Sequence record: PP925830.1
Length of the DNA stretch: 40,665 bases
Strand: one strand, 5' to 3'
Source: Escherichia phage CharmingMan
The translations under genes and the position numbers were made by a program. The notes under the pieces are model-generated. The model saw nothing but the letters and a program-made list of their open reading frames with translations, did not search any database and was not told the origin of the DNA. Of the stretch, positions 14,243 through 15,458 are shown piece by piece; the first letter of the stretch is position 1; each line of letters begins with the position of its first letter.

Positions 14243-14608
14243 ATGAATGATTTTATAAACACCTACCGACGCAGAATATTAAAGGCAGCGTTATTACGCC
14301 ACCAGCGTAAAACAGGAAGTAACTGCCTTGTTATTAAACTCAATAAAGGCGGCATTAACACGGTCGAGTTAACAGAGATTCTTCTCGATGGATTATTACG
14401 AAAATTCGAAAGGCTTGCGATCAGTGAGTACGGGAATGTCGAAGGCGTAAAAGCTATTAAGGGAATTTACAGCAGCGCTGTTGATGTTAATGGCAGCGGT
14501 GAATTCCTCACAGATAGCGGAAAGGAATTAATCGACGAGCTCATTTCTGAGCTGGTTGAGTTCGTCAAAAAGCAGAAACCAGTTAATGCGGAGATCGGCA
14601 ATGGCTAA
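14243..14608 (+). CDS. Hypothetical protein
   Basis: 121 aa, starts directly after the stop of the previous gene, overlaps the next start by 8 nt. Confidence 0.55.
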   Translation: MNDFINTYRRRILKAALLRHQRKTGSNCLVIKLNKGGINTVELTEILLDGLLRKFERLAISEYGNVEGVKAIKGIYSSAVDVNGSGEFLTDSGKELIDELISELVEFVKKQKPVNAEIGNG

Positions 14609-14855
14609 CCAACAAACAATGCTTTATCAGGGTGTGCTGATCCCCCGCCCCGTGTTGAACGTGGATCTGCATGTCCTCCCTGATTTTACAGGGCGGGTGG
14701 TCGTGCACATCGAGAACGGGAGGGTGATATGCGGCCGCCAGCTGTTCGACGACGAGCACATTTGCTCAGTGGCCACGTTTATCGAAATGGCGCGCGAAAT
14801 GGAGCTGAGATTTGAGGAGGTAGCTGGTGACACTGACAGCGATACGAATTCCTGA
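14601..14855 (+). CDS. Hypothetical protein (start at internal ATG 14601)
   Basis: GGAG 7 nt upstream of ATG 14601 (MANQQTMLYQGVLIPRPV...); overlaps the following gene by 29 nt in another frame. Confidence 0.4.
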   Translation: MANQQTMLYQGVLIPRPVLNVDLHVLPDFTGRVVVHIENGRVICGRQLFDDEHICSVATFIEMAREMELRFEEVAGDTDSDTNS

Positions 14856-15048
14856 GTGGGTTCACCTCAAAGCAGCACACGTTTTAAGCCAGTTAAGAGC
14901 AAGGCGCATTCACCCCTGCCGTATGCACGGCTCCGGTAATTTGAGTCTCAAGGTTAATCACCGCTGGAGGCTGCTCTCCCGCGATGGCGGAAAGAACTGG
15001 GAAGTAATGAGTCACGAACGATACAGCAAAGTTAAGGACCGGAAATGA
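14827..15048 (+). CDS. Small protein with tentative RelE/ParE-superfamily toxin-like C-terminus
   Basis: GTG start with GGAGG 6 nt upstream; C-terminal GSGNLSLKVNHRWRLLSRDGGKNWEVMSHERY resembles the strand-turn-strand and Arg...Tyr end of RelE/HigB-type toxins, but at 73 aa it is short. Stop overlaps the next ATG (ATGA). Confidence 0.3.
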   Translation: MTLTAIRIPEWVHLKAAHVLSQLRARRIHPCRMHGSGNLSLKVNHRWRLLSRDGGKNWEVMSHERYSKVKDRK

Positions 15049-15458
15049 ACGATAAACGCACCGTAAGCATGATTGACCTGGCATTACAGAAACACGATAC
15101 GCCAGTTGGCCCACTGTTCGTGGCAGTACGTCACGGTCGTATCAAAAAATGCTTCACGCAAGATACGGCGATCCGCTATCTGGCTTTCTTCATGACCACC
15201 GAGGCTTTTGAGCGTTCAGGTTTTCCACAGCGTCACCCGCGGGTGCGTATTGATCGCGATGACAGGGAGGTATGGCGAGACGGGGAAACAAAGGCTGAGT
15301 ATCTGGCCGCCCACCAGCGTTGTGTTCGCCGTCTGCGTCGCATTCTGGCGCGCAAGCGAGAAATGGAGAAATGGTGTGAGAAATGGGACGCGATGCACGA
15401 CCGCTTCGTTAAAGAGGTGGATGCACTGCAGGCTATCAAGCCGAAAGGAGTTCAGTGA
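15045..15458 (+). CDS. Hypothetical protein, translationally coupled to the preceding small gene
   Basis: 137 aa, Arg-rich C-terminal half; ATGA overlaps at both ends. No HTH or other motif recognised. Confidence 0.5.
   Translation: MNDKRTVSMIDLALQKHDTPVGPLFVAVRHGRIKKCFTQDTAIRYLAFFMTTEAFERSGFPQRHPRVRIDRDDREVWRDGETKAEYLAAHQRCVRRLRRILARKREMEKWCEKWDAMHDRFVKEVDALQAIKPKGVQ

Follow-up and report, generated by a model that had tools for sequence, protein, structure and literature searches.

Organisation of the locus

The genome of Escherichia phage CharmingMan (sequence record PP925830.1) was analysed over its whole stretch of 40,665 nucleotides (nt), referred to here as the window; it is the complete genome of a lambdoid (HK97-like) prophage or phage. 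This work concerns a small gene encoding a protein of 73 amino acids (aa), together with the genes for an 84-aa and a 137-aa protein that overlap it on either side. A preliminary description of the sequence had tentatively proposed a type II toxin-antitoxin gene pair with a RelE-like member at this place. The 73-aa protein is a real, conserved member of a catalogued, uncharacterised family, with a RelE/ParE fold predicted from profile matches and a structural model, and many mobile elements carry its gene as a single-gene cassette in an early or replication operon. The proposed pairing was unsupported, because the gene behaves as such a cassette and has no fixed partner. The genes and signals of the locus are as follows.

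14243..14608, plus strand: early gene for a 121-aa protein, PHROG 1737, which usually precedes the 73-aa gene in relatives
14601..14855, plus strand: gene for an acidic 84-aa protein, PHROG 340, an optional neighbour, with an ATG start
14814..14820, plus strand: Shine-Dalgarno sequence GAGGAGG of the 73-aa gene, 6 nt before its start and within the 84-aa open reading frame (ORF)
14827..15048, plus strand: gene for the 73-aa protein with predicted RelE/ParE fold, PF24732 (ParE_like), with conserved R48, H63 and Y66 and a GTG start
15045..15458, plus strand: gene for a basic 137-aa protein, PHROG 1886, a frequent, independent downstream neighbour, with an ATG start
15455..16036, plus strand: early gene for a 193-aa protein, PHROG 1515, the next cassette, which comes and goes independently in relatives

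The ORFs at 14601-14855, 14827-15048 and 15045-15458 and their overlaps were exactly as first described. The start of the 84-aa gene overlaps the stop of the 121-aa gene (ATGGCTAA), the 84-aa and 73-aa genes share 29 nt, and the 73-aa stop and 137-aa start overlap in ATGA. An antisense ORF, also of 73 aa (14893-15114), mirrors the gene and was discarded as a by-product of the coding strand.

Family and predicted fold of the 73-aa protein

The 73-aa protein matched PF24732 (ParE_like) with 71.9 bits against a cutoff of 24.4 (E 4e-20), over positions 1-67 of the 67 in the profile, and so did all 49 diverse relatives. An exhaustive profile search recovered about 115 clusters (50% identity) of proteins of roughly 70 residues. 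Across the 49 members, down to 22% identity, A16 and R48 were invariant and H63 and Y66 were at least 90% conserved; the family motif reads [WY]RLLS...W.LMSHE.YN. The family is uniformly basic, with a median isoelectric point (pI) of 10.4 and a value of 11.46 for the protein of the window. The gene is under strong purifying selection (median dN/dS 0.09 over 77 pairs, and 0.058 outside the overlap with the upstream gene). It is present in 174 loci, and in 171 of these the alignment spans at least 65 of the 73 residues.

An AlphaFold2 model built with 36 homologs was confident (pLDDT 89, pTM 0.75). Its modelled topology is beta1 (residues 2-5), alpha1 (10-24), beta2 (39-42), beta3 (47-51), beta4 (57-62) and alpha2 (63-71), that is, the N-terminal helix packed on a three- to four-stranded antiparallel sheet that characterises the BECR fold. 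The strand-turn-strand and HERY segment pointed out in the preliminary description appeared in the model as the strands 47-51 and 57-62, followed directly by H63-E64-R65-Y66. That description had compared this end of the protein with the catalytic C-terminus of RelE/HigB-type toxins, and had called the likeness weak and limited to about 30 residues. The likeness held, and it is now far stronger and extends over the whole protein, through the full-length PF24732 match and the confident model; the structure prediction proposed there as a check returned a RelE/ParE fold. The best structural matches of the model were RelE and HigB, not ParE. Viral structural relatives were “ParE-like toxin domain-containing” proteins of Yersinia phage fHe-Yen9-04 and the jumbo phage RaK2.

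Names given to homologs vary. Close homologs in RefSeq/PGAP are called “ParE family toxin-like protein”, and two phage records carry the labels “mRNA interferase HigB” and “HigB-like protein”. In PHROG, the 84-aa, 73-aa and 137-aa proteins matched families 340 (E 6e-29), 1525 (E 4e-27) and 1886 (E 1e-65), all of them phage protein families without assigned function. A marginal PF05016 match (E 0.04) was obtained for one family member. Nothing meaningful came from searching the sequences of solved structures with the 84-aa protein or with the profiles of the 73-aa family and the 137-aa protein, and searches of NCBIfam and PADLOC with six operon proteins gave nothing except a far-below-cutoff NCBIfam match for a 74-aa protein. 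No homology of the 73-aa protein to T4 RegB was found.

Gene combinations in lambdoid relatives

Loci with the 73-aa family were sampled from species-representative genomes (26) and viral contigs (80), and 79 further new viral loci were gathered with the 137-aa protein, for a total of about 190 related loci. The genes were seen in the combinations 84+73+137, 73+137, 84+73, 84+137 and 73 alone. Of the 110 loci that contain the 73-aa gene, 74 had no 84-aa gene. In such loci the 121-aa ORF extends to overlap the 73-aa start and keeps a ...DSDTNS tail. The upstream gene may be of the 84-aa type, a variant for 70-89 aa or an extended form of the 121-aa gene, and nearly always its product has ...DSDTNS or a close variant at its end, because the last 29 nt of the gene are also the ribosome-binding site and first codons of the 73-aa gene. 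Recombination junctions therefore sit upstream of this overlap.

The 73-aa and 137-aa genes reassort independently. Their identities to the window copies were uncorrelated (Spearman 0.16, p 0.11, n=95 non-identical arrangements). A 73-aa protein at least 93% identical to that of the window was found with a 137-aa protein less than 50% identical in 24 of 73 loci, and one locus combined a 100% identical 137-aa protein with a 73-aa protein of 75% identity. Eleven of the 110 loci lacked the 137-aa gene, and in all of these the 73-aa gene was intact; what came next was an unrelated gene for 74 or 168 aa, a gene of the 193-aa type, or about 90-100 nt of non-coding sequence.

The converse was also found. 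With 296 clusters against 70, the 137-aa family is about four times the size of the 73-aa family, and the 73-aa gene was missing from 14 of the 79 loci gathered with the 137-aa protein. A very common Salmonella prophage has a 65-aa homolog of the 84-aa gene directly before its 137-aa homolog, with no 73-aa gene. In 11 of the 14 loci, the 73-aa gene was replaced by an ORF of about 197 aa for an HNH_3 homing endonuclease (PF13392, E 3e-17), which retains the first 10 or so codons of the 73-aa gene (MALTAIRIPE) and ends just past the 137-aa start. This looks like a homing-endonuclease invasion of exactly that slot.

L116, L119, L124, L131, L148, L156, L157 and L188, about 1900-2511 in each: HNH_3 replacement, equivalent to window 14827-15048

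Across the loci examined, no conserved, co-inherited cognate antitoxin gene lay beside the 73-aa gene. With the upstream gene so often missing, the downstream gene reassorting and each gene occurring without the others, the proposed type II pair was not borne out.

Three of the relatives carried unexpected host labels. The Aeromonas phage AsXd-1 (L003) and the Elizabethkingia phage EKP1 (H13) showed about 89-96% DNA identity to this enterobacterial prophage region, and a contig labelled Chryseobacterium sp. 18061 (L026) encoded proteins up to 76% identical to those of the region. These labels may reflect contamination or mis-assignment.

Family members outside the lambdoid group

PF24732 members occupied a variety of other mobile elements. 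In P2-like prophages of Salmonella and Pectobacterium, the 73-aa homolog lies between an Rv2179c-like exonuclease gene and a Toprim primase gene. A 186-like Serratia prophage has it flanked by the genes for DUF5347 and the GPA replicase. Neither strand of these P2/186-like loci carries a credible small ORF near the homolog. Further members were found in Sortsnevirus, Murrayvirus, a 92-kb Yersinia phage, Serratia phage BZS1 and the jumbo phage RaK2. Integrative and conjugative elements (ICEs) of the SPI-7/SGI4 type have the gene in their backbone, in the fixed order DnaB, ParB, DUF2857, ParE_like and STY4528-family replication protein. In an F-like tra operon (L209), a member lies between a TraB(TrbI)-like gene and TraP.

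L205, L211 and L212, 2486-2749 in each: PF24732 members of ICEs

Homologs of the 84-aa or 137-aa gene were found near none of the distant PF24732 members examined. The slot between the exonuclease-like and replication genes, which the distant members occupy in the P2-like elements, corresponds to that of the non-essential small ORFs in the early lytic operon of P2 and 186 (for example orf79-orf83 in 186). As established for 186 and P2, repression in lysogens covers this slot along with the rest of the early operon. Because 186-like prophages have the gene at this place, Dhr and orf79-83 of phage 186 were considered as PF24732 members; they were rejected, as no 186 ORF matched the family profile.

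Neighbouring proteins and operon control

The 84-aa and 137-aa neighbours are separate accessory genes, each an independent cassette. Neither product matched Pfam, NCBIfam or PADLOC, and no DNA-binding domain was found in the 84-aa protein with Pfam or in the solved-structure search. The 137-aa protein had been described as Arg-rich, in agreement with its 30 Lys and Arg residues and pI of 9.95; it is thus basic, like the putative toxin. Its model (pLDDT 70) consists of a helix, a beta-hairpin and a 48-residue helix, with the N-terminus unmodelled, and gave neither a meaningful structural match nor a recognisable antitoxin fold. This is in line with the earlier remark that the partner shows no obvious helix-turn-helix (HTH), ribbon-helix-helix (RHH) or AbrB fold. 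Neither component expected of a type II system, a DNA-binding antitoxin (HTH, RHH, AbrB or Phd/YefM) and an autoregulated promoter and operator of its own, was found at the locus.

The control elements lie upstream, and the operon ends with the integrase.

12274..12951, plus strand: CI-type repressor with a C-terminal S24 peptidase domain (Pfam Peptidase_S24, E 2e-23); homologs are annotated as repressor or S24 peptidase
12973..12993, plus strand: intrinsic terminator after the repressor gene, with an 8-bp stem including 5 GC pairs, then TTTTTGTG
13079-13090 and 13105-13116, plus strand: two copies of the candidate operator palindrome TACCN4GGTA, bracketing the promoter
13091-13120, plus strand: pL-like promoter TTGATT-18-TATATT, from a promoter scan
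16048..16791, plus strand: ORF6N-domain (antirepressor-like) gene (Pfam ORF6N, E 4e-12)
17121..18774, plus strand: excisionase (DUF1233, 17121-17405) and integrase (17461-18774), both from Pfam, at the end of the early-left operon

The palindrome TACCN4GGTA occurs six times in the window against 0.22 expected, a count reached in none of 100 shuffles. Three copies lie between the repressor gene and cro (12210-12261). The sixth copy was found inside the repressor gene, at 12725. The terminator keeps repressor transcription apart from the downstream operon. From the promoter at 13091-13120 to the excisionase and integrase genes runs a series of tightly packed, mostly overlapping plus-strand genes, which we infer to be a repressor-controlled early-left operon, silent in the lysogen. 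Translational coupling, which for small-gene pairs with a RelE-like member had been called the hallmark of type II toxin-antitoxin modules in the preliminary description, joins nearly every gene of this operon and not solely the 73-aa and 137-aa genes. Within 14500-15500, no promoter-like site was found in the promoter scan and no inverted repeat was detected, so that the pair has no such signal of its own.

Proposed role of the 73-aa protein

We favour, at about an even chance, the interpretation that the 73-aa protein is a lone RelE/ParE-fold effector cassette of the early-left operon, made after derepression, and not one half of a dedicated type II pair. That it has a true toxin-antitoxin relationship with either neighbour seems rather improbable. 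The operon would begin at the promoter flanked by two putative repressor operator copies, downstream of the strong terminator. Synthesis of the protein should accordingly await prophage induction or infection. Since the operon is probably repressor-controlled, an antitoxin would be unneeded, transcriptional repression taking its place. Once made, the very basic protein most likely acts alone on the host nucleic-acid machinery. The predicted activity that we favour is ribosome- or mRNA-directed endonucleolytic cleavage by a cluster of Arg48, His63 and Tyr66, which would follow the example of RelE, YoeB and the antitoxin-less T4 RegB; mRNA cleavage like that of RelE and YoeB is what the basic surface and the conserved Arg, His and Tyr would suggest.

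Several observations weigh against this interpretation, and they concern both the activity of the protein and its solitude. As to the activity, the case for an RNase mechanism consists of a predicted fold and three conserved residues, and in one family member, P0263, H63 and Y66 are replaced by R and F. Sequence links of the family to RelE and YoeB were weak: hhalign placed R48 on R65 of YoeB at a probability of 6.9% and gave no usable alignment with E. coli RelE. The C-terminal SHERY motif resembles the ParE C-terminus too. A rival interpretation, which we consider unlikely, is a RelE/ParE scaffold without mRNA endonuclease activity. Such a protein could inhibit or modulate DNA gyrase and replication in the manner of ParE, or serve during replication of the element as a regulator that binds nucleic acid or ribosomes without catalysis. 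In favour of this, H63 and Y66 are not universal, and Pfam and PGAP class the protein as ParE-like, a name it has in common with the ParE gyrase poisons (ParDE, PaaA2-ParE2). In P2/186-like prophages and ICEs of the SPI-7 type, the gene is followed directly by one for a primase, GPA or a STY4528-type replication protein, and this adjacency hints at a ParE-like action on gyrase or replication, or at a non-catalytic role. Against a ParE-like role, however, RelE-type structures scored higher than ParE, and no ParD or PaaA2-type antitoxin lies upstream. The protein is also about 20 residues shorter than ParE toxins, so that a ParE-type C-terminal tail is unlikely. Its extreme basic charge fits RNA or ribosome binding, and in the window the gene is far from the replication genes (8717-10588).

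As to the solitude, the 137-aa gene lies directly downstream, with overlapping stop and start, in 99 of the 110 lambdoid loci (about 90%), among them versions of 37-49% identity. Two other lineages each have a conserved downstream gene of their own, which overlaps or adjoins the distant ParE_like gene. In Vibrio-type prophages it encodes 104-106 aa (49% identity between two examples), and in the Sortsne/Murray viruses an acidic protein of 92-103 aa (41% identity); no Pfam match was obtained for these proteins where tested.

L192 2731-3051 and L207 2728-3042: downstream gene of the Vibrio-type prophages
L201 1746-2024 and L203 1046-1357: downstream gene of Sortsnevirus and Murrayvirus

These lineage-specific genes, the main residual argument for pairing, could be swapped antitoxins or partners, or simply syntenic genes. 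A pair in the order of HigBA would have the 73-aa toxin first, followed by the coupled 137-aa protein, which would bind the toxin directly and so neutralise it, perhaps with the long C-terminal helix. The ATGA coupling and the recurrent downstream genes are consistent with such a pair, as is the name “plasmid maintenance system killer protein” that a homolog has in one source. We regard it as distinctly unlikely, however. The 137-aa protein has neither a Pfam match nor a known antitoxin fold and is basic, like the putative toxin; its family, about four times the larger, commonly occurs without the 73-aa gene, and the two genes reassort. Intact copies of the 73-aa gene have no 137-aa companion in 11 lambdoid loci and at the P2-like, ICE and tra sites examined, and the two genes have no promoter or operator of their own.

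Finally, the acidic 84-aa protein (pI 4.5, against 11.5 for the toxin-like protein), encoded upstream with a 29-nt overlap, presents a classic antitoxin arrangement. A type of the 84-aa gene stood upstream in 10 of the 11 lambdoid loci without the 137-aa gene, so that a single lambdoid locus, L023, lacked both neighbours and at least one was nearly always present in this group. Nevertheless, a pair in the order of RelBE or ParDE, in which the 84-aa protein would be the antitoxin or either neighbour might suffice, is highly unlikely: the 84-aa gene is missing from the majority of loci with an intact 73-aa gene, its family also occurs without the 73-aa gene, the L023 homolog lies 1.2 kb away, none is found near the distant family members, and the protein has no detected DNA-binding domain. 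We gave little weight to the presence of at least one neighbour, because it comes from just three or four independent lineages and fails outside the lambdoid group.

Comparison with known systems

A lone effector of this kind, as we favour for the 73-aa protein, differs from the established toxins in several respects. Like RelE, HigB and YoeB it is basic, and its conserved Arg in the central strand and His and Tyr at the end of the last strand are putative counterparts of catalytic residues of YoeB (R65, H83 and Y84) and RelE (R61, R81 and Y87). Unlike those toxins, however, it has just 73 aa and one N-terminal helix instead of two, and it shows no significant sequence similarity to them. It also has no conserved cognate antitoxin and no autoregulated bicistronic operon, and sits in the operons of mobile elements instead.

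The nearest functional precedent for its predicted activity is most plausibly T4 RegB. RegB is about twice as long as the 73-aa protein. Unlike what we propose for the latter, it uses two His residues and needs ribosomal protein S1, and the likeness between the two is a functional analogy only. RegB has a RelE/YoeB-like structure and no known antitoxin, and is a phage early protein that inactivates mRNAs during lytic development (PMC3014915). Phage-encoded effectors with the BECR fold have been recognised (bioRxiv 10.64898/2026.08.28.747851).

PF24732 is already catalogued in Pfam and in RefSeq annotation, and the locus adds another member. What is modestly interesting is that family members live without partners in mobile elements of many kinds. 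Neither this habit nor PF24732 itself is mentioned in any of the papers found, and a Serratia phage paper merely names a homolog “HigB-like”. The pipeline label “ParE family toxin-like” makes it tempting to assume that each copy is part of a toxin-antitoxin pair, and the comparative data point the opposite way. Some of the phages that carry PF24732, including a jumbo phage, have no integrase in the stretches examined, so that an addiction module would have no obvious role there.

If it has nuclease activity, the 73-aa protein would be an effector of phage host takeover or counter-defence on a RelE scaffold, small and experimentally tractable. To our knowledge, T4 RegB is the sole well-studied effector of this kind so far. 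If the protein proves not to be toxic, it would be a warning against toxin-antitoxin calls based on fold. Extended to the whole family, our interpretation becomes more doubtful, and we offer it tentatively: PF24732 might comprise antitoxin-less, minimal RelE-fold effectors acting as stand-alone RNases in the first-expressed operons of very different mobile elements, with transcriptional silencing in place of an antitoxin. The carriers include lambdoid and P2-like prophages, Sortsne/Murray-type and jumbo phages, SPI-7-type ICEs and F-like plasmids. Such RNases would reprogramme host translation or disarm RNA-based host defence.

Other features of the window

Two further features were noted near the ends of the early-left operon. 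A small S24-peptidase-like gene, intact at 131 aa in relatives such as L011, is frameshifted in the window (13517-13911). The frameshift is a 1-nt deletion near 13728 (TTACCCGTG to TTACCGTG), which splits the gene into the ORFs 13517-13798 and 13777-13911. Just past the integrase, a plus-strand ORF of 151 aa (18888-19343) encodes a C-terminal DinI-like domain (E 5e-22), and is a possible lysogenic-conversion or SOS-modulating moron.

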